64,000 nucleotides of DNA, from positions 13,301 to 77,300 of the forward strand of contig CAYLKS010000004.1 in assembly GCA_964384205.1 (NCBI GenBank), read 5' to 3'. This document shows positions 171-39,765 of the stretch, one piece after another. Source of the DNA: an uncultured bacterium (GTDB lineage: Bacteria > JAGOEH01 > CAYLKS01). Below the pieces are notes generated by a model. It was not told the DNA's origin. It saw nothing but the letters and a program-made list of their open reading frames with translations, and did not search any database. Every line of letters begins with the position of its first letter. Position 1 is the first letter of the stretch. The position numbers and the translations under genes were made by a program.

Positions 171-1634
171 CTAATTTAGTATTGTAATTTTATTTGATAT
201 TTTTTCTTTATTCTTTACATCGATTATGTAAAGATAGGTTCCATTAGGGACGTAATCGCCATTATCATCGCGTCCATCCCATTTTACGATAATTTTGTCC
301 GAAGAATCGAAAAATTTATTTTCGAATAAAGTTCGAATTAAATTCATAGACATATCATAAATTTTTAATGTGACATAATTTGAGTTTTTCAATGCAAAAA
401 CAATTTGAGCTTGTTGATTATCCCTTGTGCTAATGGGATTAGGAAATGAGTAAGTTTTTACTAAATCGGAATATGTTACAGGGTATGATTTTTTAAAATA
501 ATCAAAAGATTTTCCATTATTTACAGTATAAGCAAGGCCGTTATATGTTCCAATCCATAGATAAAAATCTATTGCGCATAAAGATGCTATATAATCATCT
601 GGCAATCCGTTTTGTGTGGTAAATTTTTCCAGATTTTTATTATTAAGGTTGAATGAATATAGTGCTCCGTCGGTGCCAAACCATAGTAATGAATCTTTGC
701 CGGTAATTGCTAAAGGTGCTATATCTTGTAATCCATCTATAGAATGCCATGTTTCTCCATTATTGTCTGAATAAATTGCGCCATTAGATTCTCCTGGATT
801 CCCCGAACTTGTACATGAAGCTACGATATATTTTTTATCATTGAAATAATGAATATATAATTCCCATATTTGGTTGCCGAGAAAATTTGGGGTATAACCT
901 GCTCCATACTGCGTAAATGTTTTTCCATTATCTTCTGATTTTTTGATACCAGCAGCTGTGCCGAGCCATATTATCCCTTCTTTATCAATTTTTAAAGAAA
1001 GAGCAATATTATTGAAATTGTTTACATATGTAAAAGACGGTGGATATAAGGTAGTTTCTAATGTATCATTTGTTGAATCTTCATCGGGAATAATTATAGT
1101 CCATATTGAATCTTTTATATTTTTTCTAATAAGATTGCCTCTTAAATAAGCGATAAATATAGAAGAATCTTTAAAAGCAATTTCAAACCCAACTTTTTGT
1201 GGAAATTCATCTGCAAATTTTATTTGTTCGAACTGCCATTCTGAACTATCTTTATGTCTATAGTAAATGCCGGTACCAACAGGTACAGGTTGGGACATAC
1301 TTGCATAATCTCTCATATAGCCAGCAGTAGCATAGTAATAATTATTGTTATATCCTAAAGAAAAGATATACTGATTTATATCGTTATATTTTAATTGATA
1401 GGTCCATGAATTTCCCCAATCTTCTGAAAATGCCGCACCTTCACCTGTCAAAATCCATAGCTGATTATTTAAATAATAAACTTCATATATATCATTGGAT
1501 ATTATTTCCCCCTCAGATTGCACTTTATTCAGTTTTATATTAGGTTTAATGTTATATTTTTTAGGTATTATCAATTCATTTGCATTTATTGAAATTATTA
1601 TGGCAAGAGATAATAAAATGCTTTTTTTTATCAA
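171..1634 (-). CDS. Secreted BNR/Asp-box repeat (beta-propeller) protein with a T9SS C-terminal sorting domain
   Basis: It has an N-terminal signal peptide (MIKKSILLSLAIIISINA). There are four to five Asp-box motifs of the form S-x-D-x-G-x-[ST]-[WF] (SEDWGNSW, SDNNGETW, SEDNGKTF, VNNGKSF). The C-terminal ~80 aa (NPISTRDNQQAQIVFALKNSNYVTLKIYDMSMNLIRTLFENKFF...KWDGRDDNGDYVPNGTYLYIIDV) has the pattern of a Por/T9SS CTD (FlgD Ig-like fold). Confidence 0.6.
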   Translation of the reverse strand: MIKKSILLSLAIIISINANELIIPKKYNIKPNIKLNKVQSEGEIISNDIYEVYYLNNQLWILTGEGAAFSEDWGNSWTYQLKYNDINQYIFSLGYNNNYYYATAGYMRDYASMSQPVPVGTGIYYRHKDSSEWQFEQIKFADEFPQKVGFEIAFKDSSIFIAYLRGNLIRKNIKDSIWTIIIPDEDSTNDTLETTLYPPSFTYVNNFNNIALSLKIDKEGIIWLGTAAGIKKSEDNGKTFTQYGAGYTPNFLGNQIWELYIHYFNDKKYIVASCTSSGNPGESNGAIYSDNNGETWHSIDGLQDIAPLAITGKDSLLWFGTDGALYSFNLNNKNLEKFTTQNGLPDDYIASLCAIDFYLWIGTYNGLAYTVNNGKSFDYFKKSYPVTYSDLVKTYSFPNPISTRDNQQAQIVFALKNSNYVTLKIYDMSMNLIRTLFENKFFDSSDKIIVKWDGRDDNGDYVPNGTYLYIIDVKNKEKISNKITILN

Positions 1635-1639: not shown

Positions 1640-3166
1640 TTATTCCTTAATGAGATTTTGTATTTTCTCCTCTATGCCTTTTGACATCTCATTTATATAG
1701 TTAATAAGATTATTAGCTTCTTTAATTAATTCCTGCTCATTATGTTCTTTATCAAACTTAGTATTTACCCATATATTGTATAATGAAGCATTAGCAATAG
1801 ATTTAATCATGTTTATGGCAATTCCCAGATCAGAAATAGCAGCTTTACTGCAATTTTCTACAAGGCTTGCTGTAATTTCCAGTATTGTGCTGCTTAGTTT
1901 GATCAGTTCTAAAGGGGTAAGGCAGGCATTGTGAATAATTTCCATTGCCTTTTCTTTATCTTCATAATTTTTTACAATAGAAAAGTTGTTTAAAAGATAG
2001 GAAAGATTTTGGGCATCTATATCTATACTTTCAAGGAATAAATTTCTAATGTTTTGTAATTTTTCAGTATAAGAAAATAATGACTCTTTCAAGTGGTTAA
2101 ATTTTTTCTTATTTATTGTGGTATCTATAACCAGAAGTATTAAAGATGCTGCCATAGCTCCATTATAAGCCATAGCAGAACCTCCACCAATATGAAATTC
2201 TTTATCAGCTAATAAGTCGCAAAATGTTTCCAGCTGATTAGTTGTATAAGATTCAATATATTGTTCTATAAAGGAATCATAAAAATATTTATCATCAAAA
2301 TTGTTGAGTCTTATATTTATTTTACCAAAATTTATAAATTCTTTATATGCCAAGATTTTTTTAGGATTTTCTATTTTTTGGTAAAAATATAATCCTATAT
2401 TATAAAGAAATTCTTTCTTTATCAAGCTAATAAATTCTGTTTTGTATATTTTTATTGAATGCTTTATAGCTTCATTTTCTAAATATTCAAAAAGCAGAAA
2501 AAATGGTATATTCATAGTATGCGTTTCAATTAGAATAGATGAAAGATTATGTTCTGTTCTATAAAGTTCTGTAGAATAAATATTTAATTTATCATTTGAT
2601 TCAGATAAGAATTTTTTATTTGTTATTGCTTCAGATAGGGCTTTTAGTGATTGTTTATCATGAGTAATAAAAATTATTTCACCAATAAAATGGCTAAACC
2701 CGTAATCTAATATTATATTGTTTTTAGAATTAGAATAATTTTTTTCTTCTAATAGTTCATAATTAATTTTTTCCAGAAGAGTTTGGTATAGGGATATACT
2801 TTTTTTTGTAGTATATAAATTACAATTGATTTTATTTTCTAAGAAAGCATTTTGTAAAATGCTACGATAGACATCAATTTCCTGGAGCAATATTCCTGAA
2901 ACTGAGAATAGATTTATAATTGCTGTATTTTCATTTTCTAATTCAGATATGTATGCATAAAAGTTAAGAATAGAATTCAAAACATTATTTGGGTAACCAG
3001 CGATAGTAAAGAATGAAGTATTTAAATCAAATTGAATATTTGTATCCAATAAAAATACATTGTCTTCAGATTTTAGAATATTAATAACAATATCATAATA
3101 TTTAATATCAAAATAAGATTTAAGCGCAATTTGAGCGCCTAAAATAGGCTTTTTATAAGGAAACAT
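1640..3166 (-). CDS. Formimidoyltransferase-cyclodeaminase (FTCD)-like protein: a confident C-terminal cyclodeaminase/cyclohydrolase (FTCD_C) domain, plus a divergent N-terminal region with possible formiminotransferase-like traces
   Basis: The C-terminal ~190 aa (EFHIGGGSAMAYNGAMAASLILLVIDTTINKKKF ... ISDLGIAINMIKSIANASLYNIWVN) match the FTCD_C consensus (GGGS-A-GA-AA-L--MV--LT-GKK ... GN-NA-SD---A). The N-terminal segment (LLDTNIQFDLNTSFFTIAGYPNNVLNSIL) weakly resembles the formiminotransferase N-subdomain (LLD---------T--T--G-P--V) but lacks the NFSEG motif. The start codon overlaps the rpsT stop (TAATG at 3164-3168, minus strand). Confidence 0.5.
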   Translation of the reverse strand: MFPYKKPILGAQIALKSYFDIKYYDIVINILKSEDNVFLLDTNIQFDLNTSFFTIAGYPNNVLNSILNFYAYISELENENTAIINLFSVSGILLQEIDVYRSILQNAFLENKINCNLYTTKKSISLYQTLLEKINYELLEEKNYSNSKNNIILDYGFSHFIGEIIFITHDKQSLKALSEAITNKKFLSESNDKLNIYSTELYRTEHNLSSILIETHTMNIPFFLLFEYLENEAIKHSIKIYKTEFISLIKKEFLYNIGLYFYQKIENPKKILAYKEFINFGKINIRLNNFDDKYFYDSFIEQYIESYTTNQLETFCDLLADKEFHIGGGSAMAYNGAMAASLILLVIDTTINKKKFNHLKESLFSYTEKLQNIRNLFLESIDIDAQNLSYLLNNFSIVKNYEDKEKAMEIIHNACLTPLELIKLSSTILEITASLVENCSKAAISDLGIAINMIKSIANASLYNIWVNTKFDKEHNEQELIKEANNLINYINEMSKGIEEKIQNLIKE

Positions 3167-3423
3167 TAAGCACTAAGGTTATTTAAATAACGAGCAACTT
3201 TTGATTTTTTTCTATCTACTGTATTTCTATGTAAAACGCCTTTTTTCTTTGCAGTATCAAGCATTCCATATAATTTTTTAACTAACATAGTAGCTTCTTC
3301 TTTATTGGAAGTTTTTATTAATTTTTTGGTAACAGTTCTGATACTTTTTTTAATAATTCTATTTCTTAAACGAGCTTTTTCATTAGTTTTAATTCTTTTT
3401 TTAGCTGATTTATGATGTGCCAA
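3166..3423 (-). CDS. rpsT: 30S ribosomal protein S20
   Basis: This 85-aa basic protein starts MAHHKSAKKRIKTNEKARLRNRIIKKS... and ends ...VARYLNNLSA. That is the typical S20 N-terminal signature and size. Confidence 0.9.
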   Translation of the reverse strand: MAHHKSAKKRIKTNEKARLRNRIIKKSIRTVTKKLIKTSNKEEATMLVKKLYGMLDTAKKKGVLHRNTVDRKKSKVARYLNNLSA

Positions 3424-3624
3424 TTTTTCCTCCTTGGGTTTGTGTGTTTACAGCTTTAAAAACGTGGACTGTTAATATATAATTTTTTAAATCTTTTGTC
3501 AAGAGCTTTCTTATGTAAGTCTAAAAAAATCATATATTTTTCTCTTGTTTTTTGTTAATAAAATTAATATTTTAAATATCATTGTCAAGTAGAAAAAATG
3601 AATTTTTATAGAAGGAGTTTATAA

Positions 3625-4488
3625 ATGAAAGTTGGATTTGTTGGAATTATTGGTAAACCAAATGCAGGTAAATCTACCTTACTAAATGCGATTTTAGGAG
3701 AAGATTTATCTATTGTTACCCCAAAAGCTCAGACTACAAGAAAACAAATTATTGGTATTTATAATGATGATGAATCTCAGATTATTTTTGTAGATACCCC
3801 TGGTATTACAGAGCCAAGGGATAGATTAAATAAATTATTAGTTGAAAATGCAGAGCGGGCTATAAATGATGTTGATATTATTGTTATGATTATTGATGCC
3901 ACAAGATATATGAAGGAATTTTCTGATGATATTAAAAATTTTTTGGAAAATAATAGAAAGCCAATTTTTTTGCTTATTAATAAGATTGATAAAATCAGGA
4001 AAGCTTATATATTACCAATTATAGAATATTATAGACATTTGTATAGTTTTAATGAGATATTGCCTATATCTGCCAAATATAGGGACGGAGTTGATAAATT
4101 AATAGAATTATTAAAAGAATATTTACCGGAGGGAGAGCCTTTTTACGATCAGGATATTATTTCCACGCAAAATGAGAGAACATTTGTGGAGGAATATATT
4201 AGAGAAGGTATTTTTTATTTATTAAAACAGGAGTTGCCGTATTCTATTTATGTAAAAATTAATGAATATAAGGAAAGTGATGAAGAAGCAGAGATTTTTG
4301 CCGATATTTATGTTGAGAAAGACTCTCAGAAGAAAATAGTTGTTGGAAGAAATGGAAGTATGATAAAACAAATTAGAGAATATGCAACAGACAAAATAGC
4401 AAAATTTATTAATAAAAAAGTTAAGTTACATCTTTGGGTTAAAGTAAATAAACATTGGAAGAAAAATATTACTGAAAAACAATTATGA
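3625..4488 (+). CDS. era: GTPase Era
   Basis: G1 motif GKPNAGKST, G3 DTPGI and G4 NKID are present. The C-terminal KH domain and the 287-aa length fit Era. An RBS (GAAGGAG) lies 7 nt upstream of the ATG. Confidence 0.9.
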   Translation: MKVGFVGIIGKPNAGKSTLLNAILGEDLSIVTPKAQTTRKQIIGIYNDDESQIIFVDTPGITEPRDRLNKLLVENAERAINDVDIIVMIIDATRYMKEFSDDIKNFLENNRKPIFLLINKIDKIRKAYILPIIEYYRHLYSFNEILPISAKYRDGVDKLIELLKEYLPEGEPFYDQDIISTQNERTFVEEYIREGIFYLLKQELPYSIYVKINEYKESDEEAEIFADIYVEKDSQKKIVVGRNGSMIKQIREYATDKIAKFINKKVKLHLWVKVNKHWKKNITEKQL

Positions 4489-6164
4489 TTCGTTTTATTA
4501 AAAGAATACCTAAAACATTAGATGACTATAATGTTATTTTTAATGGAAAAGATGAGATAAGGAATCATATAGGACAACTTTGTGAAGAAAGTGTTCCTTT
4601 TGATACAATTATACTACGACGAGATAATAGTAAATTTCAAAAAGAAAGAGCATTTTCTTTTTTTGTGCTTTCCGATAAAAATTATTTTTTGACAGATATA
4701 TTGAATCCTTTGGATACAGGGGCAGAAGTACTGAATTATATTAAGAATTTAGAATTTAAATCAGATTTTGATAAAGAAATATCAAAGAAGCTTGGATTTT
4801 TACAATTTATTTACTCTTTTATGGATATTCAATATACTTTTTTTGCTCTATTAATTGGTTATAAGAATTTGGTTATAGATAATCAGAAAATACAGGCTTT
4901 AAAATTTGCTTATCCAGATTTTATTAAAAAGTTTGAAAAAAGAGATAATTTTCGAGTGAATCTAACTTTAGAATATCCAGTAGAAGTTATTATTGAAGGG
5001 TATAAAACAAGAGCTTTAAATATATCTGCAGGGGGGATAGCAATAAATACGAAGATTCCACGAATTATACATATTGGGGAAATTTTGCCTATGACATTAA
5101 CTTTTCCAAATGGGGGCTCTTGTTTTATAAAAGGAATGGTGAAGTATTTGAGTTCATATCGAGCGGGGATACAATTTATTCCTTCATCAAGAAATAAGAT
5201 TGATATTATAGAATTTAAGCACAATTTAGACATAATAAGGAAATTTGTAATAGCGGAGCAGCTGCGTCAGAAGAAAAAAGAGAAAGATTTTGAAGATTAT
5301 TTACTGGATAAGAAGAAAGTTTATGAAAAAGTAAAAAAATCTGTAAAACAAAAATTGAATATTATAAAAAATCAGGAAGAACGCAAAGCTTTTTATGAAA
5401 TTCATAGGCCTACTATTTTGGTTATTGATAATATACCAGGGACAAATTATGATTTTTTGAAGGCACATTTTAATGTTTATAATACCCACTATATAAAAGC
5501 AGAAGTGAATTTTAAAATAAATAGTATTGAAGCATTAATTTTCAATCCTGATTATTCAAATTATAAAAATATTATTGATTTTTTGGTTAAATACCATATT
5601 GCAAAGATAACACCTAAGATAATAGTTTCCAACCAATTATCTAGAGATTTTATTTTATTTTTAAATAAGAAGATTACATTTGATAATATGTTAAAATTTC
5701 CTCCTAATCCAAGGTTATTAATAAATAGCTTAAAGAAAATTTTTCACTATGATTTAGATGAGAAAACTTTTAAGATAGATCAAAAAATAAAAGATTTAAA
5801 ATTTGCAGTTGTATCTAATGTTCCATTTTTGTTATACCACATAACACATTTGTTATATTCTGCAGGTATTGAGAAAGTTGTTAGGATAGATTCTTCTGGT
5901 AAGATTGCAAATGTCTTATCTAATTTTTCGCCAGAAATTTTAATAATAGATAATATTATAGATACTGTGGATGCTTTGAGGATGGGGTATATTTTAAAGA
6001 AAAATCCAGCTTTTAAAAATATTAAAATTTTCCTTGTTATAACGGAAAAGTTTGATAATTATTTAGAGTTAATTGGGAAATATAATATTGATAGGTTTAT
6101 ATTTTTTCCTTTTAATGAAGAAGAGTTTATTGAGATTCTGGAATCTTTTGCAGTGGAATTTTAG
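4485..6164 (+). CDS. PilZ-domain (c-di-GMP-binding type) protein, 559 aa, translationally coupled to era
   Basis: Its start overlaps the era stop (ATGA at 4485-4488). The central segment has both canonical PilZ motifs: RxxxR (RDNFR, nt 4941-4955) and [DN]xSxGG (NISAGGIAI). The flanking ~150-aa N-terminal and ~300-aa C-terminal regions resemble no family I recognise. Confidence 0.55.
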   Translation: MIRFIKRIPKTLDDYNVIFNGKDEIRNHIGQLCEESVPFDTIILRRDNSKFQKERAFSFFVLSDKNYFLTDILNPLDTGAEVLNYIKNLEFKSDFDKEISKKLGFLQFIYSFMDIQYTFFALLIGYKNLVIDNQKIQALKFAYPDFIKKFEKRDNFRVNLTLEYPVEVIIEGYKTRALNISAGGIAINTKIPRIIHIGEILPMTLTFPNGGSCFIKGMVKYLSSYRAGIQFIPSSRNKIDIIEFKHNLDIIRKFVIAEQLRQKKKEKDFEDYLLDKKKVYEKVKKSVKQKLNIIKNQEERKAFYEIHRPTILVIDNIPGTNYDFLKAHFNVYNTHYIKAEVNFKINSIEALIFNPDYSNYKNIIDFLVKYHIAKITPKIIVSNQLSRDFILFLNKKITFDNMLKFPPNPRLLINSLKKIFHYDLDEKTFKIDQKIKDLKFAVVSNVPFLLYHITHLLYSAGIEKVVRIDSSGKIANVLSNFSPEILIIDNIIDTVDALRMGYILKKNPAFKNIKIFLVITEKFDNYLELIGKYNIDRFIFFPFNEEEFIEILESFAVEF

Positions 6165-6470
6165 CTTTTTTAAAGTATGCCATATCTTTTATTATTATAT
6201 AAAACGGATTAAGTATTTAGATTTATTACCTTATGTTAGCGAGAATTTCTATGCAAAATCAGATACATTTTATTATTATACAAATCAATATTGAAATTCT
6301 AAAGTAAATAAATTTGTTACTTCACTAATATTAAATCAAAAATAATAAATAATTAAAAAATGAAATGTTATAATTTTTTAGTTTAATTTTTTTCAAATTA
6401 TAAATACAATTTTTTTAATTCAAGGGTGATACTATGTTTTATTTTTTTTCAAGTGAAACCTAAAAAAAGC

Positions 6471-6499
6471 TTGACAAAAAATTTTTTGTATCTATATTT
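6471..6499 (+). promoter_or_regulatory. Candidate promoter of the thr operon (TTGACA-N16/17-TATATT)
   Basis: TTGACA at 6471-6476 is followed 16-17 nt later by TATATT/ATATTT at 6493-6499, about 36 nt upstream of the thrA ATG. In an FCB-type sigA organism the real -7 element may instead be the overlapping TAtaTTTa. Confidence 0.3.
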
Positions 6500-6534
6500 A
6501 CTCTTTATATTTTTTCAAAAAAAAGGAATCTGAC

Positions 6535-23598: not shown

Positions 23599-24771
23599 TT
23601 ATTTAATTTTTATTACAATTAAGGTTATATCATCATCAGGTTTCCGTGTCCCTAAAAAAAGCCCAAGTTCTTTTAATATATTTTCTATAATAGCTTTGGG
23701 GCTTTTATCTTTATTGTTTGATATTGTAGCTTGTAGTCTTTTTTTCCCAAATTGCTCTTTATTATAGTTTTGAGCTTCAATTATTCCGTCAGTGTAAAAC
23801 AATATAATATCTCCTGAATCTATATTAATATCATAATTTTTATATTTACTAGTTGGAAGAAGCCCTAAGAAGAAACTGGGAGCATCAATTTTTAATATTG
23901 TATTTTTTTTTGCACTATAAATTATAGGAGGGTGATGTCCGGCATTGGAAAATAGAAGTTTTTTTTCATTTATGTTTATATCACAATATAATGCGGTTAC
24001 GAAAAAATCGGTACCACCTACTAATTTATATACGTTAGAATTTAGTTTATCTAATAAATTATTTGGGGACATCCCCCCCATATCTAATATACTATTATAG
24101 AATGATTTTATTGCGGCGGTAATTAATGCAGATGGAGTACCATGTCCTGAAACATCTGCTATAAGTAATTGCAATGAATTCTGAAATATATTAAAATCAT
24201 AAAAATCCCCGCCAAGTTGGGTAGATGGTTGATAATAGAATGATATTTCAAAGCCATTATATTCCTGGGGGATATTACTGGGCAAAAGAGTTCTTTGTAA
24301 TTCAGCAGCTAATTCTAATTCTCGTTCTAAAAGTTTTTTTTGTTCTAATATTTTGTTTCTATTTTCTATAGTTGTTTTTAATAAGTTATAATAATTAATA
24401 GCATTTTTTACTTTTAGAGGTAATTGAATATTTAAAATATTATTCGAAAGAGGCTTTTCTAAATAATCAAAGCACCCAAAATTTAATGCCTTTTTTATGG
24501 ATTCTATATCTGATAAGGCTGAACTTACAATAATAGGGATATTTTTATATTCTTTTGTATTTTTTATCCAATTTAAGAACTCAAATCCATCCATAATAGG
24601 CATTGTTAAATCTAATATTATTAGATCAATTGCTTGGTCTTCTGTAATTTTTTTTGCAACCAGACCGTTTTCTGCTTCTAATATATTATAGTTATATTTT
24701 TTTAATGTAAAAAATAAAATTTTTCTATTGAGTTTTTCATCATCTACGATAAGTACACTTTTTTTATTCAT
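23599..24771 (-). CDS. Response-regulator receiver fused to a PP2C-type Ser phosphatase (RsbU/SpoIIE-like)
   Basis: The receiver has the acidic pocket VLIVDDEK, the phospho-Asp context LIILDLTMPIMDG, and the conserved Lys. The C-terminal PP2C motifs are GGDFYDF ... ADVSGHG ... DGIIEA. Confidence 0.75.
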   Translation of the reverse strand: MNKKSVLIVDDEKLNRKILFFTLKKYNYNILEAENGLVAKKITEDQAIDLIILDLTMPIMDGFEFLNWIKNTKEYKNIPIIVSSALSDIESIKKALNFGCFDYLEKPLSNNILNIQLPLKVKNAINYYNLLKTTIENRNKILEQKKLLERELELAAELQRTLLPSNIPQEYNGFEISFYYQPSTQLGGDFYDFNIFQNSLQLLIADVSGHGTPSALITAAIKSFYNSILDMGGMSPNNLLDKLNSNVYKLVGGTDFFVTALYCDININEKKLLFSNAGHHPPIIYSAKKNTILKIDAPSFFLGLLPTSKYKNYDINIDSGDIILFYTDGIIEAQNYNKEQFGKKRLQATISNNKDKSPKAIIENILKELGLFLGTRKPDDDITLIVIKIK

Positions 24772-24783
24772 ACAATATCCTTA

Positions 24784-25662
24784 TTAGAGGTCTTTATATT
24801 TTATTAATGTAATTTGGTTACCTTTATCATTATATTCAAATTTATCAAAAAAAGTTTTTATCATCAGAATGCCTCGTCCATGCTCATTTAATATATTTAT
24901 ATCGTCATTTATTGTTTTTTTCCAGTTAAATCCTTTCCCCTCATCTTTGATAACAAATTTTACATAATTTTCTGTTAAATGGTAATCTATAACAACCTTT
25001 CGTTTTGAGAAAACTGGATGTTTTTTTCTTTCAGATAATAAATCATAATATTTATTATCTTGAATAGCGTGCTTTTTAGTATTCCCATCAATTTCAAAAT
25101 TCCCATGTTCTATAGCATTAATAATTACTTCATAAAGAGCAAGTTCAATTTTTTTTATATTTCGGGTTATTTTTTTTGCATTGAAGGTTAATTGATTGAT
25201 TACACTGGGGATTTTGGATAGATCATTTTCTAAAATTATTCTTTTTTTTTCTTCTATTAATGTTTCAGTATCGTAGAGATTTATTATATTGCGATAGAGA
25301 AAAATAGCTTTATTTATTAAAGTGTTCCATTCTTCTTGTTTATCAGGGATTTCAAAACAATAGAATAATTTTTTAGAATATAGTGTATATAATATATCCT
25401 TTTTGATTTTTTTTACAAGAGCTATAGGGAGTACATCTAATAAAAGATTTCCAGAATGAATCATTTCAAGTAGTTTGGATATATTGGGGAGTGATTCGTT
25501 TTCATAATAATATAATAAGATATTTACTTTTTCTTTAAGAATTATATCAAAAGCTTCTTCTATGTTATTATTTACAATACTTTCTATTTCATATTTATGA
25601 GCATTTTTTTTTATTGTAGTTACTATTGGATGATTTTCTTGAGTGAACAGCAAAACCTTCAT
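24784..25662 (-). CDS. Pseudo-receiver fused to an RsbW-like GHKL Ser-kinase/anti-sigma-factor-type ATPase domain
   Basis: The N-terminal ~120 aa have a receiver-like fold but lack the acidic pocket and phospho-Asp (Y in that position). The C-terminus (LYEVIINAIEHGNFEID ... KDEGKGFNW ... EHGRGILMIK) has the N, G1 and G2 boxes of RsbW/SpoIIAB-type kinases. Confidence 0.55.
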   Translation of the reverse strand: MKVLLFTQENHPIVTTIKKNAHKYEIESIVNNNIEEAFDIILKEKVNILLYYYENESLPNISKLLEMIHSGNLLLDVLPIALVKKIKKDILYTLYSKKLFYCFEIPDKQEEWNTLINKAIFLYRNIINLYDTETLIEEKKRIILENDLSKIPSVINQLTFNAKKITRNIKKIELALYEVIINAIEHGNFEIDGNTKKHAIQDNKYYDLLSERKKHPVFSKRKVVIDYHLTENYVKFVIKDEGKGFNWKKTINDDINILNEHGRGILMIKTFFDKFEYNDKGNQITLIKYKDL

Positions 25663-25682
25663 TTTTTTAACTCACTATTAGT

Positions 25683-26741
25683 TTAGATTTCATTTAATAT
25701 AAAAGGGATTTTAAGTAATGGTACTATTTTTTTGACAGCGTTTAATTTAATTGCTTCTTTAGGCATTCCAAAGACCACACAGCTTTCTTCATCTTGAGCA
25801 ATAGTAAAAGCTCCCTTTTCTTTTAATGCAAGCATTCCTTTAGCTCCATCATCCCCCATACCTGTTAAAATAACTGCAATAGCATTACTACCTGCGGAAT
25901 TAGCTGCAGATTTAAATAAAACATCCACACTCGGTTTATGTCTATTTATAGGTGGTCCATCTTTTACTTCCACATAATAAGTAGTACCTGAGCGTTGCAA
26001 TAACATATGCTTGCCACCGGGAGCAATTAGAGCAAGGCCTTGTTCTAATTTATCACCATTTTCTGCTTCTTTTACTCTAATAGGACAGGTGCTATTTAAT
26101 CTTTCTGCAAAAGCTTTAGTAAATCCAACTGGCATATGTTGTGTAACTACTATTGGTTTGACACCTGTTTTTAATCTTTTGAAAATAGTTTCTATAGCGA
26201 CAGTTCCGCCAGTAGATGCTCCTATAACGATTACAGGATCGGTTTTTATTATTTTAGTTTTATAATCTTTTATATATTCATCTACATCTATTTTTTCTTT
26301 TAACCCGGTTTTAAACTTGCTATCTAATGTTTTTTGTGGAAGTATTTTTGCTTTGACTGCCATTTTCAATTTTTCTATAATTTCATTTTTTAGAGAATGT
26401 AGCTCTATAGGAGCAGAAGGTTTTTTTATGAAGTCTATAGCACCCAGCTCTAAAGCTTTCATTGTTATTTTTGAATGTTTATCTGTTAGAGAACTAACCA
26501 TTATAACCGGGGTTGGATATTTGTCCATAAGTTTTTCCAGAAAAGTAATGCCGTCCATTTTGGGCATCTCTACATCTAAAGTAATAACGTCAGGTTTTCC
26601 TTCTTTTACATATTTTCGAGCTTCATAAGGATTTGACGCTTCTCCAATAACAATAAAATCAGGATCGCTTAAAATAATATTTTTTAAAACAGTTCTTGTT
26701 AAAACTGAATCATCGATAATTAATACTTTTATTTTACTCAT
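25683..26741 (-). CDS. cheB: Chemotaxis response-regulator protein-glutamate methylesterase
   Basis: The receiver is KVLIIDDS ... DVEMPKMDG. The CheB methylesterase domain is GASTGG ... TQHMPVGFTKAFAERLN ... catalytic region. Length 352 aa. Confidence 0.85.
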   Translation of the reverse strand: MSKIKVLIIDDSVLTRTVLKNIILSDPDFIVIGEASNPYEARKYVKEGKPDVITLDVEMPKMDGITFLEKLMDKYPTPVIMVSSLTDKHSKITMKALELGAIDFIKKPSAPIELHSLKNEIIEKLKMAVKAKILPQKTLDSKFKTGLKEKIDVDEYIKDYKTKIIKTDPVIVIGASTGGTVAIETIFKRLKTGVKPIVVTQHMPVGFTKAFAERLNSTCPIRVKEAENGDKLEQGLALIAPGGKHMLLQRSGTTYYVEVKDGPPINRHKPSVDVLFKSAANSAGSNAIAVILTGMGDDGAKGMLALKEKGAFTIAQDEESCVVFGMPKEAIKLNAVKKIVPLLKIPFILNEI

Positions 26742-26744
26742 CTT

Positions 26745-28217
26745 TTATATCCTTTTAGGGTTAACTATTTCAAATATAAAAGTTATTCCATTTTTTTGTT
26801 CATAATAAAATTTTATTTTTAAAATATCTAATAAAAATTTAATTATATATATTCGTAAAGTCTTCAAATCAACCCTTTCTTCTTCTATATTAATATTGTC
26901 CAGTATAGTAAAATCATTAATAAGTTTATTATAAGAGTCTTCATTTATTCCATCTAAATTAAATTTAATATAAATTGCATTTGAGCTTTCGTCAATATTA
27001 ATTTTTATTTTTTTGAAAAAATTTCTGTGAATAATTATTATTTCCATAAAATAAGTTATCAAATAATAAAATAAGTCAAAATCGAATAAAATTTTATTAT
27101 TTGCAATATTTTGTTCTATCGATATTGGAAATTTAGTAATTCTTTCCTTTTCAAGAAAGTTATATATACAATCTTCAACAATTCTTATAACATCTATTTC
27201 TTGAGATTTAGCTTTCGACCTGAAAGAACTTATATTTAGCAGATATAATAGATCTTCTATAAATGAAATCATTTGATTATAAGAAGACATGCTTTGTGTG
27301 AGTGAAATTGTAATATCAGTATGCTCTAAAGTTTTTAAATAATCGAATATATTTGCAATATTTATTAGAGGAATCTTGATATTTTGAGACAAAATAGATA
27401 TAAGCTTTTTTTGAATTAGTAGTAAATTTTCTAATGTCTTATTTGTATTTTTTAGTTCTTTTTCATATAAAAATCTTTTTAAGTGAACATTTATTCTGGA
27501 AATAAATTCCTCATATAAAAATGGTTTTACAATATAGTCATTAATCCCGGCATTGAAAGCATCTAACATATTTTTTTTATCATTGTTGCTTGCTGTCATT
27601 ATAATAGGTGTATTGGTGTACTCTGATTTATTTCGTATTTTTTTGGTTAGTTCAATACCATTAATTTCTGGTAAAAATAAATCTATAATAAAAAGGTCAA
27701 TTTTGTTTTGATTCATAATTTTTATAGCTTCTAAAGGATTATCTGTGGAAAGAGTTTTATATCCATGCCGATCTAATATATATTTTATCATAGAATTTAT
27801 TAAAGGAGAGTTAATGACGACTAATATATTTATATCTTTAGAATTATTTTTAGCATAGAAGAAGTCCCTGACAAAATTATATAAATTATCTTTTATTTCA
27901 TTTTTATTAAAAAAATGAATTGCTCCTACATTAAAGCCTCTTATTCTTGAAAAAAAATTATCTTTACCTGTTATCAATATAACAGGGGTATTGAGCATTT
28001 TTTTATTTTGTTTGATTTTTCTGCACAATTCAAAACCATCCATTCCTTTCATTATAATATTTATAGTTATAAAATCTAAATTTGTTTTGTTGATAATATC
28101 TAAAGCATCAAATCCATTACTTGCCTCTATTATATTTGTGTCTTCCAGTTTTTCTAATTCTTCTTTTATTAGAAAACGAGCTATTTTACTATCATCAACA
28201 ATTAGTACATTTTTCAT
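26745..28217 (-). CDS. Tandem-receiver protein with a degenerate (His-less) histidine-kinase-like C-terminal region
   Basis: REC1 has the Asp pocket (LIVDDSK) but Asn at the phospho-acceptor site (DFITINIIMKGMDG). REC2 keeps the acceptor Asp (LFIIDLFLPEINGIEL) but lacks the DD pocket. The HisKA-like helix reads ILSQNIKIPLINI (Gln where the His of SHELRTPL would be). A poorly conserved ATPase-like tail follows. Confidence 0.55.
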   Translation of the reverse strand: MKNVLIVDDSKIARFLIKEELEKLEDTNIIEASNGFDALDIINKTNLDFITINIIMKGMDGFELCRKIKQNKKMLNTPVILITGKDNFFSRIRGFNVGAIHFFNKNEIKDNLYNFVRDFFYAKNNSKDINILVVINSPLINSMIKYILDRHGYKTLSTDNPLEAIKIMNQNKIDLFIIDLFLPEINGIELTKKIRNKSEYTNTPIIMTASNNDKKNMLDAFNAGINDYIVKPFLYEEFISRINVHLKRFLYEKELKNTNKTLENLLLIQKKLISILSQNIKIPLINIANIFDYLKTLEHTDITISLTQSMSSYNQMISFIEDLLYLLNISSFRSKAKSQEIDVIRIVEDCIYNFLEKERITKFPISIEQNIANNKILFDFDLFYYLITYFMEIIIIHRNFFKKIKINIDESSNAIYIKFNLDGINEDSYNKLINDFTILDNINIEEERVDLKTLRIYIIKFLLDILKIKFYYEQKNGITFIFEIVNPKRI

Positions 28218-28219
28218 TT

Positions 28220-28825
28220 TTATTCAAAAAAGTTTATTCTTTCATTATCTTTATGTGCTGTTTGTTCTTGTTGTAATCGTTTTACATAAGCCTGTTCTTG
28301 TTTTATTTCTTGTTGAATCTCTTTTGATACAGTGCTTCTTAATTTTTTTACAAGAACTTTATAAGTATCTGTGAAAAATAGAATTTTTCTTCCCTGATAA
28401 CCACCAACATCTTGGTTTACAATAGGAATCTTTTCTAATTTTAAAAAGGTTACAGCAAATCTAATATTATTATCTACAACATTCCCTTCTCTTGTTTTGT
28501 AATTTAAAACATGTCCACCACCAAATACTTTTGCTTTTAGATTTTCTTTTTTTCCACCCTTTTTTATAATGTCATTTATTAAAACTTCCATAGCGAAAAT
28601 ACCATAACGTGCTGATGGTTCCATAAATATACGTTCATCTCTGAGATCTCCCACCAGCATAAAATGATTCATTCCTGCAATATTATTCACTTCATCATAT
28701 AAACATACAGCAATGCAAGAGCCAAGTACTGTGGATATTATTTCATTATCCGTAGAAGTATAATATTCACCTGGATTAATGACAACCATTGTTTTGTTAA
28801 ATCTTTTTTCAAACTTTTTATACAT
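28220..28825 (-). CDS. cheD: Chemoreceptor glutamine deamidase CheD, with a ~40-aa charged coiled-coil C-terminal extension
   Basis: The CheD motif GSCIAVCLYD with its catalytic Cys, plus NHFMLVG, is present. The 201-aa length is ~40 aa longer than typical CheD; the tail is KKLRSTVSKEIQQEIKQEQAYVKRLQQEQ. Confidence 0.8.
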   Translation of the reverse strand: MYKKFEKRFNKTMVVINPGEYYTSTDNEIISTVLGSCIAVCLYDEVNNIAGMNHFMLVGDLRDERIFMEPSARYGIFAMEVLINDIIKKGGKKENLKAKVFGGGHVLNYKTREGNVVDNNIRFAVTFLKLEKIPIVNQDVGGYQGRKILFFTDTYKVLVKKLRSTVSKEIQQEIKQEQAYVKRLQQEQTAHKDNERINFFE

Positions 28826-28827
28826 CT

Positions 28828-29658
28828 TTAAACCTTCGTGTATATTGTGCTTTTTATATATTTAAAATTTTTAAAATTTAATAATGATTCACTATGCCCA
28901 ATAAAGATTAATCCATCATCTTTTAGATATTGATAAAATTTGTTTAATACATGTCTTTTCAGGTCATTATCAAAATAAATCATTACATTTCGGAAGAATA
29001 TAAAATCAAATTTTACTTTTATTCTATAGTCTTCTAGTTTAAAATTTAGTTTTCTAAAAGAGATTTTTCCCCTTAATAATGGTTTTACTTTATAATGAAC
29101 TTGCCCATTTAATTCAATTTTTTCAAAATATTTTTGTTTAAATGATTGGGGGACAGGATATAATAGCTGTTCTCTATAAATTCCTTGAGATGCTTTTGTT
29201 AGTATTTCTGTATCTATATCAGTTGCCAATATTTTAAAATCCCAGCCAGAATGCTTTGATAAAAAATTGTCCAGTACCATTGCAATTGTATATGGTTCTT
29301 CTCCAGAAGAACATCCTGCACTCCATACAAGTATTGTATAAGGATTATTGTTGGCAATTATTTTGGGGAGATGCTCTTTTTCTAAAAATTCGAAATGGTG
29401 TTTTTCGCGAAAGAAATCAGTTTTGTTAGTAGTTATTCTATTTATAAAATTGATCATTTCTTCAGAATTGTGCCCCTGATTTTTGATATAGTTTAAATAT
29501 TCAGTAAATGAGTTAATATTTAATTCTTTAAGTCTTCGAGTTAATCTTGCAATTATTAAACTTTTTTTTGCATCGCTTATTTTTATTCCAATATTATCAT
29601 AGATAATTTTTTTAAATTCTTTAAAATCTTTATCAGATATAGTATCTGGAATTAACAT
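28828..29658 (-). CDS. cheR: Chemotaxis protein methyltransferase
   Basis: The N-terminal all-helical domain is followed by the SAM motif WSAGCSSGEEPYTIAMVL. Length 276 aa. Confidence 0.85.
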   Translation of the reverse strand: MLIPDTISDKDFKEFKKIIYDNIGIKISDAKKSLIIARLTRRLKELNINSFTEYLNYIKNQGHNSEEMINFINRITTNKTDFFREKHHFEFLEKEHLPKIIANNNPYTILVWSAGCSSGEEPYTIAMVLDNFLSKHSGWDFKILATDIDTEILTKASQGIYREQLLYPVPQSFKQKYFEKIELNGQVHYKVKPLLRGKISFRKLNFKLEDYRIKVKFDFIFFRNVMIYFDNDLKRHVLNKFYQYLKDDGLIFIGHSESLLNFKNFKYIKSTIYTKV

Positions 29659-29661
29659 GTA

Positions 29662-31017
29662 TTAGGCACCTATTTTTTCACTTATTTCTTCAAAAATGAT
29701 TTCAAATAGTTTCTCAAGATTAATTAATATAATCATTCTTTTATCTTTTTTCCCAACACCGTATAAAAATTCTGTATTAATCTTTGTATGAGCAACTATC
29801 GGCTCCTGTACTTCTTTCATGTCAAATTCAACAATATCTGAGACAGAATCCACAACAATCCCTATAATTTTGTCTAAAACTTCTATTACTATAATTACAG
29901 AATACTTAGTAATTTTTATATTATTCATATTAAATTTTTTTCTTAAATCGAAAATAGGGATAACATTTCCTCTTAAATTTAACATTCCTAATATATAATC
30001 TGGTGTATTAGGTATAATATTAGGTTGATGGAAGCCAATAATTTCTTGTATTTTTAGTATTTCAATACCATATTCTTCATTATCCATAATAACAGTTATG
30101 TATTCTCTTATATCGTTTAATGGTTGCTCTTCTTCAATGTTTTGTACCTCATATTCTTCTGGTATTTTTTCTATTGTTTGTTTTTGAGATTCTTCTAAAT
30201 TTTCTTTTTTAAATTTTAATTCTTTTTTGTCTTGATTTGTTTTTAATATATCTTCTTCTTTTAGTTGTATAATATTATCTTCTTTTATCTTTAGTGTATA
30301 GGCGACCATGTCTTTTTCCATTGGTGAAAAATATAATATAGATATTGGTAAGTGTTCTTCAGTATCTTCAGATAAATCCTGGATTAGATTTATATTTATT
30401 TTATTATCTAAAATTTCACCGAAGTTTGTAGCTTCTTTTACAAAGCTCAAGGGATTAATGCCCTTTTTTTCTAAATCATTAATTAAATCTATATTGATAA
30501 CAAAAACATATCCTGTTTTAAATTTTGTTTTCAAAATAGCAATATTTACATCAAAATTATAAGAACAGTTATCTCTTTCAAATTTGGTGGTTGTATTCAA
30601 TTCTTGAATTAATTCCTTGTCTCCACTTTCCTTCAAAGAATTATCAAGTAATTGAAGGTATTCTGTTATATCCATATTATTGGATTCTTCTACATTATCA
30701 AGTAATTCTTTAAGCCGATCAATAGATTTTAATAAAGCATTCGATATAGAAGATGTCATATTTATTTTTCTATTTCTAATTAAATCAAGAATATCTTCCA
30801 TTTTATGTGATAGTTTTTCTATATTATGAAGTTCAATGAAAGACGCTCCACCTTTTATTGAATGTATTGCTCTGAATATATTATTAATTAAATCAGAATC
30901 AAATTCTCCTGCTTTTAACTGTTGTTCAAATGATAATATATCATTTTCAATATTATTTAAATGTTCAGAAGATTCTGCAACAAAGTCTGGTATTAAATAG
31001 GAAAAATCTTCAGCCAT
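29662..31017 (-). CDS. Hpt(P1)-linker-CheW(P5-like) protein lacking the CheA dimerisation and ATPase domains
   Basis: The N-terminal Hpt helix has the phosphorylatable His in FRAIHSIKGGASF (canonical HTLKG). An acidic/coiled linker of ~170 aa follows. The C-terminal CheW-like domain is GIEILKIQEIIGFHQPNIIPNTPDYILGMLNLRGNVIPIFDLRKKF. No H-box-independent ATPase motifs are present. Confidence 0.65.
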   Translation of the reverse strand: MAEDFSYLIPDFVAESSEHLNNIENDILSFEQQLKAGEFDSDLINNIFRAIHSIKGGASFIELHNIEKLSHKMEDILDLIRNRKINMTSSISNALLKSIDRLKELLDNVEESNNMDITEYLQLLDNSLKESGDKELIQELNTTTKFERDNCSYNFDVNIAILKTKFKTGYVFVINIDLINDLEKKGINPLSFVKEATNFGEILDNKININLIQDLSEDTEEHLPISILYFSPMEKDMVAYTLKIKEDNIIQLKEEDILKTNQDKKELKFKKENLEESQKQTIEKIPEEYEVQNIEEEQPLNDIREYITVIMDNEEYGIEILKIQEIIGFHQPNIIPNTPDYILGMLNLRGNVIPIFDLRKKFNMNNIKITKYSVIIVIEVLDKIIGIVVDSVSDIVEFDMKEVQEPIVAHTKINTEFLYGVGKKDKRMIILINLEKLFEIIFEEISEKIGA

Positions 31018-31030
31018 AATATCCCCCTGT

Positions 31031-31498
31031 CTATAATAAGTCTAATTCTTCTTGAAATAAAATTTTGTCAATATTAACAATTAGTACAAAATAATTCTCT
31101 TTTTTTATTACGCCAGCAATATATTCTCTATCTATATTGGAATTTGTAATTAGGCTAGGTGTTGGTTGAATATCTTCCTTACTAAAATTGATTATATCGG
31201 AAACAGAATCAACAATTATACCTATTAATTTATTTTTAATACTTAAAATTAAAATAACAGTGAATTTATCATATTCTTTTTCAGGGAGATTAAATCTACT
31301 CCTGATATCTATAATCGGTACTGCTTCTCCACGTAAATCTATAATTCCTTTCACAAATGGAGGCGAATTTGGAATTCTTGTTATAGGTTTATATCCGATA
31401 ACTTCTCTTATTTTTAATACTTCAACAGCATAATATTCATTATCTAAAGTAAAAATAATATACTGTGATGTTTCTTTTATAACATCATTGGATTGCAT
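31031..31498 (-). CDS. cheW: Chemotaxis coupling protein CheW
   Basis: At 155 aa it is a single CheW domain: YAVEVLKIREVIGYKPITRIPNSPPFVKGIIDLRGEAVPIIDIRSRF. Confidence 0.8.
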   Translation of the reverse strand: MQSNDVIKETSQYIIFTLDNEYYAVEVLKIREVIGYKPITRIPNSPPFVKGIIDLRGEAVPIIDIRSRFNLPEKEYDKFTVILILSIKNKLIGIIVDSVSDIINFSKEDIQPTPSLITNSNIDREYIAGVIKKENYFVLIVNIDKILFQEELDLL

Positions 31499-33605
31499 AG
31501 TTCCCCCTATTTATATTTACAAAGGCTAAATTTTCCAGACCGTAGATATCAAGGATTAGTGAAAGATTGCCATCTCCTAAAATGGTAACACCAGCAGTGC
31601 CTGGTAGCTGCATAAAATTTTTATCCAGAGATTTTATAACAGCTTGTTGTTCTCCAATTATATCATCAACCATTAATCCAAACTTTTTATTTCTGCTTCC
31701 TTCTATAATAATGATCAATGCTTTTGCAGGATCTGTTTTTTCTGTTTCTAAATTGAATAATTTATGTAATCTTACTAATGGTAAATATTCTCCTCTTACT
31801 TCTATCAATTCGCCTTCTTTTTCTATTGATTTTATATTTTCTTGCTGAGGTTTTATGCTTTCTATAATAGACATTAGGGGGATCGTAATATATTCTTTAC
31901 CAACTTTTACGATCATACCATCGATAATTGCTAATGTTAGAGGAAGTTTTATTTTAAATGTAGTTCCTATATCTTTTTGAGATTCTACTATAATTGAACC
32001 TTTTAAATCTTCAATATTCTTTCTTACTACATCTAATCCAACGCCTCTACCACTAATTTCTGTGACTTTTTCAGCTGTAGAAAATCCAGGCATAAATAGA
32101 AAACTATAAATATCTTCATCGGAAAATTTTTGATTAGGAGAAATGAGCCCTTTTGATATCGCTTTTTGATATACTTTTTCTTTATCTATACCTCTGCCGT
32201 CATCTTTTATTTCTATAAATATACTGCCCTCTTGTTGATATGCTTTTAATTGAATTAATCCTTCTTCTGGTTTTCCTTTTTTTCTTCTTTCTTCAGGGGA
32301 TTCTATGCCATGATCTACAGAATTCCTAATTAAATGTTTTAGAGGATCTCCCAGTTGTTCAATAACATTTTTATCTAATTCTGTTTCTGTTCCATACATT
32401 TCTAATCTAATTTTTTTATTTAATTCTTTTGACATATCTCTTACTATTCTATAAAATCTGTTGAATGTCCCCTCCACAGGAATCATTCTGACTTTCATTA
32501 CCTGTTCTTGAATTTCTCTTGAAAATCTAATAAGATCCTCTAATGCATTTGCCATATCATGATTTTTAATAAAATGATTATCTTTGGAAATCTGGTTTAG
32601 CCTTGCCATAGCTATAACCATTTCGCTAACTAAATTAACTAATTTGTCAAGTTTTTGTGTATCTACTCTGATAGTAGAAGCCTTTTTTATTTTTTGTCCA
32701 GTTTTTTTTATGACTTTATTACTCATAGGCTTCTCCTTTATAGGAATTTGTTTTGTTTTGTTCTGGTTATTATCATTTATATTAGTTTGTGGCTGAACTT
32801 GGACTGTTACAGACTCTTGAGTTTTCGCAGGAATATCTTGAGTTTTTGTAATATCTTCTTTTTTTTCTATATTTTTAAGATATTCATTTGTTATATCTGA
32901 TATTTTAATTTTATTATTATCATCCATTACAAAAATAAATATATTTTCAATTTGACTTATCGGTTCTTCAGATTTTAGAATTATTTCCCACGATATATAA
33001 TGTTTATATATATCAATTTGATCAAAAGCTGGCAGATTATCAATATTTGTTATTGTTTGGACAATTTCTCCCACTTCTTCAAGTTCATAGAAAAACATAA
33101 TAGGATTTGTACCTGTTTCATATATATGATTATTTAAAGAAATATTTATTTTATAGAACTTTAAACCCTTATCAGTTTTTTTGTCGATTTTAATATTTGT
33201 TTTCTCTTCTTTTTGTTCATTTGTTCCCAGAAAATTATTTGCTTGTTTTATTAATTCATTAAATGTTGGTTCTAATTTTGTAAAATCTTCGTTGAAATTC
33301 TTATCTGTTACAAATTTTAAGACATCTTCCACCTGAAATAGAAGATTGATTATTTCTTCATTTAAAGGAAGTTCGCCATTTCTTATAACATCTAATAAAT
33401 TTTCTATATGGTGGCAAAAATCTGACAATTTTGTATAACCAACCAATGCCGTACTGCTTTTGAAAGTGTGAATCGCTCGGAATAATGCATTTATGTTTTC
33501 GTTAAAATCTATATTTTGTTCTAAATTAAGGATTGCTTCCTCATACTGATTTAGTAAATCTTCTGCTTCCTGAAAAAAAATTTCTTTAATTTGATCCTGG
33601 TTCAT
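31485..33605 (-). CDS. cheA: Chemotaxis histidine kinase CheA (P1-P5 complete)
   Basis: The P1 Hpt has His in FRAIHTFKSS. There is a P3 dimerisation helix and a P4 GHKL domain (IRNSVDHGIE ... IKDDGRGID ... SGRGVGLDVV). The C-terminus is a P5 CheW-like domain. Length 706 aa. Confidence 0.9.
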   Translation of the reverse strand: MNQDQIKEIFFQEAEDLLNQYEEAILNLEQNIDFNENINALFRAIHTFKSSTALVGYTKLSDFCHHIENLLDVIRNGELPLNEEIINLLFQVEDVLKFVTDKNFNEDFTKLEPTFNELIKQANNFLGTNEQKEEKTNIKIDKKTDKGLKFYKINISLNNHIYETGTNPIMFFYELEEVGEIVQTITNIDNLPAFDQIDIYKHYISWEIILKSEEPISQIENIFIFVMDDNNKIKISDITNEYLKNIEKKEDITKTQDIPAKTQESVTVQVQPQTNINDNNQNKTKQIPIKEKPMSNKVIKKTGQKIKKASTIRVDTQKLDKLVNLVSEMVIAMARLNQISKDNHFIKNHDMANALEDLIRFSREIQEQVMKVRMIPVEGTFNRFYRIVRDMSKELNKKIRLEMYGTETELDKNVIEQLGDPLKHLIRNSVDHGIESPEERRKKGKPEEGLIQLKAYQQEGSIFIEIKDDGRGIDKEKVYQKAISKGLISPNQKFSDEDIYSFLFMPGFSTAEKVTEISGRGVGLDVVRKNIEDLKGSIIVESQKDIGTTFKIKLPLTLAIIDGMIVKVGKEYITIPLMSIIESIKPQQENIKSIEKEGELIEVRGEYLPLVRLHKLFNLETEKTDPAKALIIIIEGSRNKKFGLMVDDIIGEQQAVIKSLDKNFMQLPGTAGVTILGDGNLSLILDIYGLENLAFVNINRGNYAIQ

Positions 33606-33617
33606 AACTGCTACCTT

Positions 33618-34001
33618 TTATGTTCTGATAAATTTTTTTGCTACTTTTATTAACATTTCAGGAGAAAAGGGTTTTAAAAGCCATCCCGCTGCTCCAGCTT
33701 CTTTTCCTTTCATTTTCATTTCGTTTTGGGATTCTGTTGTTAGTACTATAATCGGAATGAATTTAAATTCACTTTGTTTTACAGTTTTGATAAATTCAAT
33801 TCCATCCATTACAGGCATATAAATATCACTGAAAATTAGTGATACCTTTTCATTATTTGCATATATTTCTTTTAATTTCTCGATTCCTTTTTGACCATTT
33901 TCTGCCTCATATACTTTATAACCAGAGGATTCTAATATAGCTCTAACACTGGCTCTTAAAGTAACCGAATCATCAACAATTAAAATTATAGGTTTATCCA
34001 T
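33618..34001 (-). CDS. cheY: Single-domain response regulator CheY
   Basis: The 127-aa protein has ILIVDDS, the acceptor region FSDIYMPVMDG, T in VLTTES and K in LLKPF. It lies directly downstream of cheA. Confidence 0.85.
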   Translation of the reverse strand: MDKPIILIVDDSVTLRASVRAILESSGYKVYEAENGQKGIEKLKEIYANNEKVSLIFSDIYMPVMDGIEFIKTVKQSEFKFIPIIVLTTESQNEMKMKGKEAGAAGWLLKPFSPEMLIKVAKKFIRT

Positions 34002-34014
34002 ATAAATATCCTTT

Positions 34015-39733: not shown

Positions 39734-39765
39734 AATAAGTTTTTTCCTTAAAAAGGAGAGGAATT

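Follow-up and report, generated by a model that had tools for sequence, protein, structure and literature searches.

The window analysed here is a stretch of 64,000 nucleotides (nt; G+C ~27%) from an uncultured bacterium (GenBank assembly GCA_964384205.1, contig CAYLKS010000004.1), in which era is followed on the same strand by a gene for a 559-amino-acid (aa) PilZ-domain protein, the subject of this report. The upstream open reading frame (ORF) was identified as era by NCBIfam NF000908 (347 bits, cut-off 237) and by the Pfam domains MMR_HSR1 and KH_2. The two genes meet at an ATGA in which the era TGA occupies 4486-4488 and the ATG of the PilZ gene 4485-4487, a start codon backed by homologues, which keep the N-terminus MIRFI/MIQFL. 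Overlaps of 4 nt were the commonest class of same-strand junction in the window (6 of 42 junctions), and the ATGA shared by era and the PilZ gene is an ordinary one for this DNA. The 25 nt that precede 4485 contain no Shine-Dalgarno-like motif. Because the PilZ gene lacks a Shine-Dalgarno site of its own while era has one (Table 1), its translation may plausibly proceed by re-initiation following that of era. Upstream, rpsT (3166..3423, minus strand) is divergent from era; downstream, an AT-rich gap of 370 nt (6165..6534) separates the PilZ gene from thrA-asd-thrB-thrC and carries a sigma-70-like promoter-like site (TTGACA-16-TATATT, 6471-6498) ahead of thrA. Given the divergent rpsT on one side and the gap with its promoter-like site on the other, the unit looks like a bicistronic era-pilZ operon. 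The gap gave no Rfam match to a riboswitch or other RNA family (E up to 1) and no predicted intrinsic terminator, and its fold, computed for 6150-6300 only, was no more stable than that of shuffled controls (z-score -0.01). The same locus is present in a near-identical strain of a different sample (L016), whose PilZ gene differs by 2 nt, too few across the gene for a selection test.

Table 1. Positions in the window of the era-PilZ unit, of the parts of the PilZ protein and of the chemosensory genes.
Feature	Position	Strand	Evidence or remark
Shine-Dalgarno-like AGGAG	3613..3617	+	8 nt upstream of era start; sole such site for the era-PilZ unit
era (GTPase Era, 287 aa)	3625..4488	+	NCBIfam and Pfam
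ATGA stop/start overlap	4485..4488	+	era TGA and PilZ-gene ATG; three bases in common
Gene for the 559-aa xPilZ-PilZ-linker-REC*-REC* protein	4485..6164	+	ORF reading, Pfam, AlphaFold2 model
N-terminal xPilZ (YcgR-N-like) beta-barrel domain, aa 16-150	4530..4934	+	AlphaFold2 and Foldseek
Canonical PilZ domain, aa 151-237	4935..5195	+	Pfam PF07238; AlphaFold2 barrel, then C-terminal helix
RxxxR motif, R153-D-N-F-R157, inter-barrel linker	4941..4955	+	sequence
[D/N]xSxxG motif, N179-I-S-A-G-G184	5019..5036	+	sequence
Lys/Glu-rich helical linker, aa 238-306	5196..5402	+	AlphaFold2 helix 238-293; variable in length and sequence
REC1, receiver-fold pseudo-receiver, aa 307-425	5403..5759	+	AlphaFold2 alternating beta/alpha fold; hhalign
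REC2, CheY-fold degenerate receiver, aa 438-559	5796..6161	+	
Chemosensory cluster (CheY, CheA, CheW, CheR, CheD, CheB and partner-switching proteins)	23599..35537	-	Pfam
REC-SpoIIE PP2C phosphatase	23599..24771	-	che cluster
RsbW-like HATPase_c_2 protein	24784..25662	-	che cluster; N-terminal ~165 aa unassigned
CheA	31485..33605	-	che cluster
REC-HATPase_c_2-STAS fusion	34275..35537	-	che cluster

The protein very probably has the architecture xPilZ-PilZ-linker-REC*-REC*, where REC* is a degenerate receiver (REC) domain. An AlphaFold2 model computed from a 12-sequence alignment (A3) had a mean predicted local distance difference test score (pLDDT) of 80.4 and a predicted template modelling score (pTM) of 0.38, values at which the individual predicted domains are reliable and their mutual arrangement is not; a single-sequence model (pLDDT 37.6) was not usable. 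The model consists of a barrel with two helices (aa 16-150), a second barrel (157-237), a long helix (238-293) and two (beta-alpha)5 domains at about aa 308-420 and 438-555. The top Foldseek matches in the PDB were two-barrel receptors of cyclic di-GMP (c-di-GMP), namely PP4397/FlgZ (3kyf, 2.7e-12), MotI/DgrA (5vx6), YcgR (5y6f), MrkH (5ejl) and VCA0042 (2rde), with alignments of 235-271 columns on targets of 209-235 aa that covered both barrels. A family profile also matched MotI/YpfA (E 1.4e-10, profile positions 74-227), extending into the N-terminal domain. An identity as a MrkH-like transcription factor was rejected: no DNA-binding or helix-turn-helix domain was detected, and MrkH was matched through the two-barrel fold only.

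The second barrel matched Pfam PF07238 at 32.8 bits (gathering score 22.5) over aa 151-238 and profile positions 1-92 of 102, and the same family scored 26.7 and 27.2 bits in the full-length homologues. In the model its fold comprises strands across 167-232 and a helix from 238 (pLDDT 82-92), and the PilZ domain of Alg44 (4rt0) matched with TMt 0.74. An earlier note on this DNA, made from the sequence alone, had described the overlap with era and the PilZ motifs RDNFR and NISAGG; overlap, coordinates and motifs were confirmed by sequence, and the profile scan together with the predicted barrel and helix bore out the PilZ assignment. The two motifs stand 21 residues apart, the canonical spacing, and each full-length homologue has its counterparts (KRNDYR/DFSSGG in one, FRNENR/NISCGG in the other). 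R153, R157 and G184 are invariant over six family members, and both motifs are kept also in a distant group of relatives. The RxxxR hinge of PilZ proteins is flexible without ligand; the low pLDDT of loop 152-155 (<50, one of just three such segments) fits this flexibility. Judged from its sequence, the protein probably binds c-di-GMP. The linker that follows is less well defined, with a pLDDT of about 61-74 in the second half of its helix. Only 6 of its 69 positions are invariant among three homologues, and ~33 residues of it are absent from the distant group. Among the three full-length proteins, linker identity was 25-35% and that of the folded domains 26-49%; between the window protein and P0005, one of the homologues, PilZ is the least conserved folded domain (26%).

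The earlier note had found no recognisable family on either side of the PilZ motifs, a description that proves wrong by profiles and predicted structure, which place the xPilZ barrel at the N-terminus and two receiver folds at the C-terminus. When REC1 was aligned with REC2 by hhalign, the probability was 96% (E 1.7e-9). The C-terminus is faintly receiver-like by sequence (PleD NF007135, E 7e-4; RR468, E 0.09); in Foldseek, the REC-REC pair of PleD aligned over 278 columns, and CheY and RR468 matched with TMt 0.85-0.90. REC1 had no Pfam match, and REC2 scored 20.6 bits in the window protein, 40.5 in P0005 and 30.1 in P0006 (the second full-length homologue) against Response_reg (PF00072, gathering score 30.2). 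Both receivers were aligned (MAFFT) with CheY of E. coli and with receivers from the window itself (CheY, CheB and RsbU-type); residues are numbered as in E. coli CheY. At positions D12, D13, D57, T87 and K109, the family has D, N, N, S/T and F/I in REC1 (D, N, N, S and F in the window protein), and S, N, D, I/L/V and F/Y in REC2 (S, N, D, I and F in the window protein). This degenerate pattern is identical across all close family members. In REC2 of the distant group, whose genes are linked to cheX, D57 and K109 are kept in 3 of 3 proteins and T/S87 in 2 of 3. D489, the phospho-acceptor of REC2, does not vary in any family member or in the distant relatives. Phosphotransfer by receivers needs the Mg2+-binding acidic pair, the T87 hydroxyl and K109; because both window receivers lack the acidic pair and the Lys, normal phosphotransfer at either appears unlikely.

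An exhaustive phmmer search over 1.84 billion representatives returned two full-length homologues, P0005 (555 aa) and P0006 (560 aa), each 34% identical to the window protein, along with one C-terminal fragment (P0007) and weak partial matches. Among these representatives the close family comprises three 50%-identity clusters, which are the species-level full-length members, and the one fragment, and it occurs solely in a few Delongbacteria-like genomes. A Candidatus Delongbacteria metagenome-assembled genome (MAG; JAGOEH010000003) is the source of P0005; P0006 is encoded in the MAG of an uncultured bacterium and on three metagenome contigs. Word-indexed searches with the single sequence and with two alignments returned only the query itself or generic receivers, probably because AT-rich, low-complexity words dominate. 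A scan of genome contigs gave no match with the single protein and only the two known MAGs with an alignment query, and two scans of metagenome contigs yielded no further homologues. Across the PilZ region, the weak matches P0011, P0015 and P0019 (479-485 aa) run colinear to the query. P0011 and P0015 are colinear over the receivers too; the corresponding stretches of P0019 are insignificant, its colinearity there coming from the alignment.

In both full-length relatives (loci L001 and L002) the gene order is era, a PorZ-like propeller gene, the PilZ gene, cheR, cheB and gpsA. The propeller gene (PorZ_N beta-propeller/Reg_prop, 744-745 aa; L001 330..2567, L002 5770..8004) overlaps the end of era on one side and the PilZ gene on the other; it is this gene, not era, with which the PilZ gene there shares its ATGA. 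Only in the window genome is the PilZ gene coupled directly to era; membership of the era operon is kept in 3 of 3 genomes with known upstream sequence. The era-locus synteny raised in the earlier note was thus found in part: both full-length homologues lie in the era operon, and the direct overlap is not kept. The PorZ-like gene is not at the window locus, and over the 64 kb compared its only counterpart was an 89-aa C-terminal similarity (31% identity) to a CHU_C-tailed ORF (171..1634). Of 12 L002 genes checked against the window, era and the PilZ gene alone were still neighbours, with identities of 57% for Era and 34% for the PilZ protein. The best window matches of the L002 cheR and cheB lie in the che cluster (CheR 28828..29658, 42%; CheB 25683..26741, 45%), and the remaining L002 genes had no match in the 64 kb, barring the PorZ-like tail. 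Three distant proteins of the same architecture are each encoded directly after cheX, in one case (L008) with an ATGA overlap with cheX. The sole recurrent signalling neighbours are chemotaxis enzymes.

Like the window protein, YcgR, FlgZ (PP4397), MotI (DgrA, YpfA) and PlzD (VCA0042) have an N-terminal PilZ-like barrel, a canonical PilZ domain and an RxxxR hinge; they are its best structural matches and are themselves tied to motility and chemotaxis. These YcgR-type receptors are ~210-250 aa long and end after the PilZ helix, whereas the window protein carries an extra ~320 aa of linker and two receivers. At twice the length and with no PilZN sequence match, it falls by sequence outside the classical YcgR family. 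Its two consecutive CheY-fold domains resemble the REC1-REC2 stem of PleD, in which the second receiver is a non-phosphorylated adaptor. PleD has a GGDEF output and a phosphorylated REC1; the window protein has no GGDEF domain, and its REC1 lacks the acceptor Asp. Its input is probably c-di-GMP through PilZ and not phosphorylation. PilZ-REC fusions have been catalogued since 2006, and fusions of PilZ with REC and CheC domains are documented. One PilZ-REC protein, PixA of Myxococcus xanthus, controls motility (PMC8316039) and, as in the window protein, has PilZ N-terminal to the receiver in one polypeptide. PixA has one PilZ domain from residue ~9 and one receiver with all phosphorylation residues, including D180, whereas the window protein has the additional xPilZ and two degenerate receivers; with those residues not intact, its sequence is not that of a PixA-type response regulator. 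The tandem-receiver protein DrdR of Xanthomonas works by direct contact with motility ATPases (PMC13507683), and the CheY-like Cle proteins of Caulobacter are activated, without phosphorylation, by c-di-GMP (PMC5677366), which they bind through a short Arg-rich tail, not through a PilZ domain. The partners of MapZ and HapZ at high c-di-GMP are CheR1 and a REC domain, respectively; the MapZ-CheR1 pair is paralleled by the gene-neighbourhood link to cheR in relatives of the window protein. In Cle, MapZ and HapZ, as is proposed for the window protein, c-di-GMP reaches chemotaxis or motor output by way of a CheY-fold or PilZ adaptor and with no phosphorylation. MapZ and HapZ are single-domain PilZ proteins acting in trans, whereas here a predicted sensor and CheY-like domains are fused in one protein. 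Full-text literature searches found no characterised xPilZ-PilZ-REC-REC example.

With confidence that is about evenly balanced, we favour the reading that the protein is a receptor for c-di-GMP which acts, through CheY-like domains that bind other proteins, in chemosensory or motility signalling; that the output is of this kind we put, taken alone, at or a little under an even chance. The protein would be a cytoplasmic four-domain signalling adaptor, beginning with a YcgR-type sensing module that has RxxxR in the hinge between its barrels. Ligand-driven clamping of the barrels is established for YcgR, PP4397 and VCA0042. In the same way, c-di-GMP bound at the RxxxR hinge and at the NxSxxG face would clamp the two barrels together, and the closure would pass through the PilZ C-terminal helix and the linker to the pseudo-receiver pair. 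That pair might then serve as a phosphorylation-independent CheY-like surface that binds CheR, CheB, CheX or a target of CheY. Whereas the ORF, its overlap with era, the PilZ motifs, the predicted folds, the degenerate receiver residues and the gene neighbourhoods are shown, we infer the ligand, the relay by domain closure, the partner in chemotaxis or motility and the absence of a tie to Era; gene neighbourhoods point to CheR or CheB as candidate partners in close relatives and to CheX in distant ones. Because the relatives' genes adjoin chemotaxis genes, a role in tuning chemotaxis or motility is more probable than one in ribosome assembly. The PilZ gene would ride in the era operon, translated in the window genome by re-initiation after era and in steady co-expression with a housekeeping gene, a placement that appears to be an inherited trait of the Delongbacteria-like lineage without a functional partnership with Era.

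Several observations weigh against this reading. A Pfam scan of aa 1-152 with E up to 10 found no PilZN-type family (PF07317 YcgR, PF12945 PilZNR and similar), and hhalign found no profile similarity between the N-terminal domain and PilZ (probability 0.05%), so that the xPilZ call rests on predicted structure and the MotI profile match. Since the arrangement of the domains in the model is not reliable, it offers no modelled relay. The acceptor D489 in REC2 is kept, which leaves a small door open to atypical phosphorylation. No che gene adjoins the window PilZ gene: the che cluster lies 17 kb off on the other strand, and thrA stands 370 nt downstream. Inspection of the 64-kb window showed neither flagellar nor pilus genes and none for GGDEF/EAL proteins. 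The gene that follows the fragment P0007, a fourth family member, is mreB. Finally, as there are only three close genomes, their common gene order may reflect descent, not function.

Among the other explanations, the proposal of the earlier note was that the coupling links c-di-GMP to ribosome maturation or cell-cycle control. In its full form, it has the protein attach to Era or pre-30S particles, at a stoichiometry to Era that the coupling sets, and link c-di-GMP to Era-dependent 30S maturation. An overlap by ATGA and a missing Shine-Dalgarno site would accord with this, as would the position of the PilZ gene downstream of era wherever the upstream sequence is known and the persistence of this pair alone, out of the 12 L002 genes compared. 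The chance of it nevertheless seems very slim. In both relatives a 744-aa PorZ-like gene stands between the two genes and takes the overlap; the domains, with a CheY-fold C-terminal half, are typical of motility and chemotaxis adaptors, and the recurring signalling neighbours are cheR-cheB and cheX. No RNA-binding or ribosome-related domain was found in the PilZ protein, and a full-text literature search found no link between Era and c-di-GMP. The identities between the window and L002 moreover indicate very different evolutionary rates for Era and the PilZ protein, which argues against such a partnership. The other suggestion of the note, a local operon quirk, came closer to the evidence, except that the quirk is lineage-wide and not local. 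A role with the PorZ-like propeller protein in type IX secretion (T9SS), gliding or another function of the cell surface is likewise improbable. In L001 and L002 the PorZ_N/Reg_prop gene does overlap era and the PilZ gene, and the window encodes proteins with T9SS C-terminal sorting domains, such as the CHU_C product of 171..1634; but the propeller gene is missing at the window locus, with only the tail similarity elsewhere, and is missing also from the distant group, whose genes of the same architecture adjoin cheX, not T9SS genes. The PorZ-like protein is, to judge from its family, presumably exported, whereas the PilZ protein is predicted to be cytoplasmic.

The remaining alternatives turn on the chemistry of the protein itself. 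Some PilZ proteins, such as PlpA of M. xanthus, do not bind c-di-GMP, and this one might have lost binding and become a constitutive scaffold. The low conservation of its PilZ domain relative to P0005, the modest Pfam score and the want of any GGDEF/EAL gene in the window would suit such a loss, which we consider decidedly unlikely given that both motifs are intact, properly spaced and kept across homologues of ~34% identity and in the distant group; YcgR- and MotI-type proteins, moreover, invariably keep c-di-GMP binding (Galperin and Chou). It is also unlikely, if somewhat less so, that the protein is a genuine atypical response regulator in which D489 of REC2 is phosphorylated by a histidine kinase or CheA and this is integrated with c-di-GMP as proposed for PixA. 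PixA gives a precedent, D489 is invariant, REC2 of P0005 lies above the Response_reg threshold, and REC2 of the distant group keeps K109 in all three proteins and T/S87 in two. Against this, in the four close members REC2 lacks both Mg2+-binding acidic residues (S-N for D-D), the T87 hydroxyl and K109, and REC1 has no acceptor Asp. A more specific form of the favoured c-di-GMP receptor, which we regard as quite improbable, would be a lineage-specific pseudo-CheY of a candidate phylum, gated by c-di-GMP. Its YcgR-type sensor would switch the phosphorylation-dead CheY-like pair so that this mimics or blocks phosphorylated CheY, or controls CheR/CheB adaptation or the CheX phosphatase; with synthesis tied to translation of Era, the motility decision would scale with the capacity for ribosome biogenesis. 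If true, a pseudo-CheY of this sort would set beside the mechanisms of Cle and MapZ one that works through a single fused protein.

Every domain of the protein is well known, and no new category is opened. A formerly unknown 559-aa protein is resolved as a YcgR-type sensor joined to CheY-like pseudo-receivers, and an attractive, unsupported idea of c-di-GMP control over Era and ribosome maturation is removed. The lead that replaces it is a possible input of c-di-GMP to chemotaxis adaptation or to CheY-phosphatase steps, both in the Delongbacteria-like lineage and in unrelated cheX-linked homologues.

The chemosensory cluster of the window (Table 1) is a candidate partner pathway for the PilZ protein. 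It contains no gene for a methyl-accepting chemotaxis protein, and its composition suggests that the output of the Che pathway is a sigma-factor or partner-switch module, instead of or besides a motor. Beside the full CheA, a 451-aa product (29662..31017, minus strand) in which only Hpt (aa 11-104) and CheW (aa 305-439) were detected at E up to 1e-5, with the middle ~200 aa unassigned, resembles a CheA-like protein in which no kinase domain can be recognised. Between cheD and cheB, a 490-aa protein (26745..28217, minus strand) has two good receivers, followed by ~250 C-terminal aa for which Pfam gave no match (E up to 1). This REC-REC protein was considered as a paralogue of the C-terminal half of the PilZ protein and dismissed, the similarity being generic and insignificant.

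Further observations concern the surroundings of both loci. In the relatives, a conserved minus-strand trio with overlapping starts and stops lies downstream of gpsA (L001 7172..9754, L002 12661..15270) and encodes a radical SAM protein, a small cyclic-nucleotide (cNMP)-binding protein and a K+ channel (Ion_trans, TrkA_N/RCK). In the window, rpsT has one base in common with a downstream 508-aa ORF (the pair spanning 1640..3423, minus strand), in which an FTCD_C cyclodeaminase domain was found solely in the C-terminal third, the N-terminal ~310 aa being unassigned. The ORFs 37262..37633, 52779..53891, 60310..62346 and 62369..63088 had no significant Pfam match, the third of them showing a faint match to the T9SS Por_Secre_tail (E 0.057). 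An intergenic gap of 665 nt (39101..39765) precedes the arginine-biosynthesis operon.

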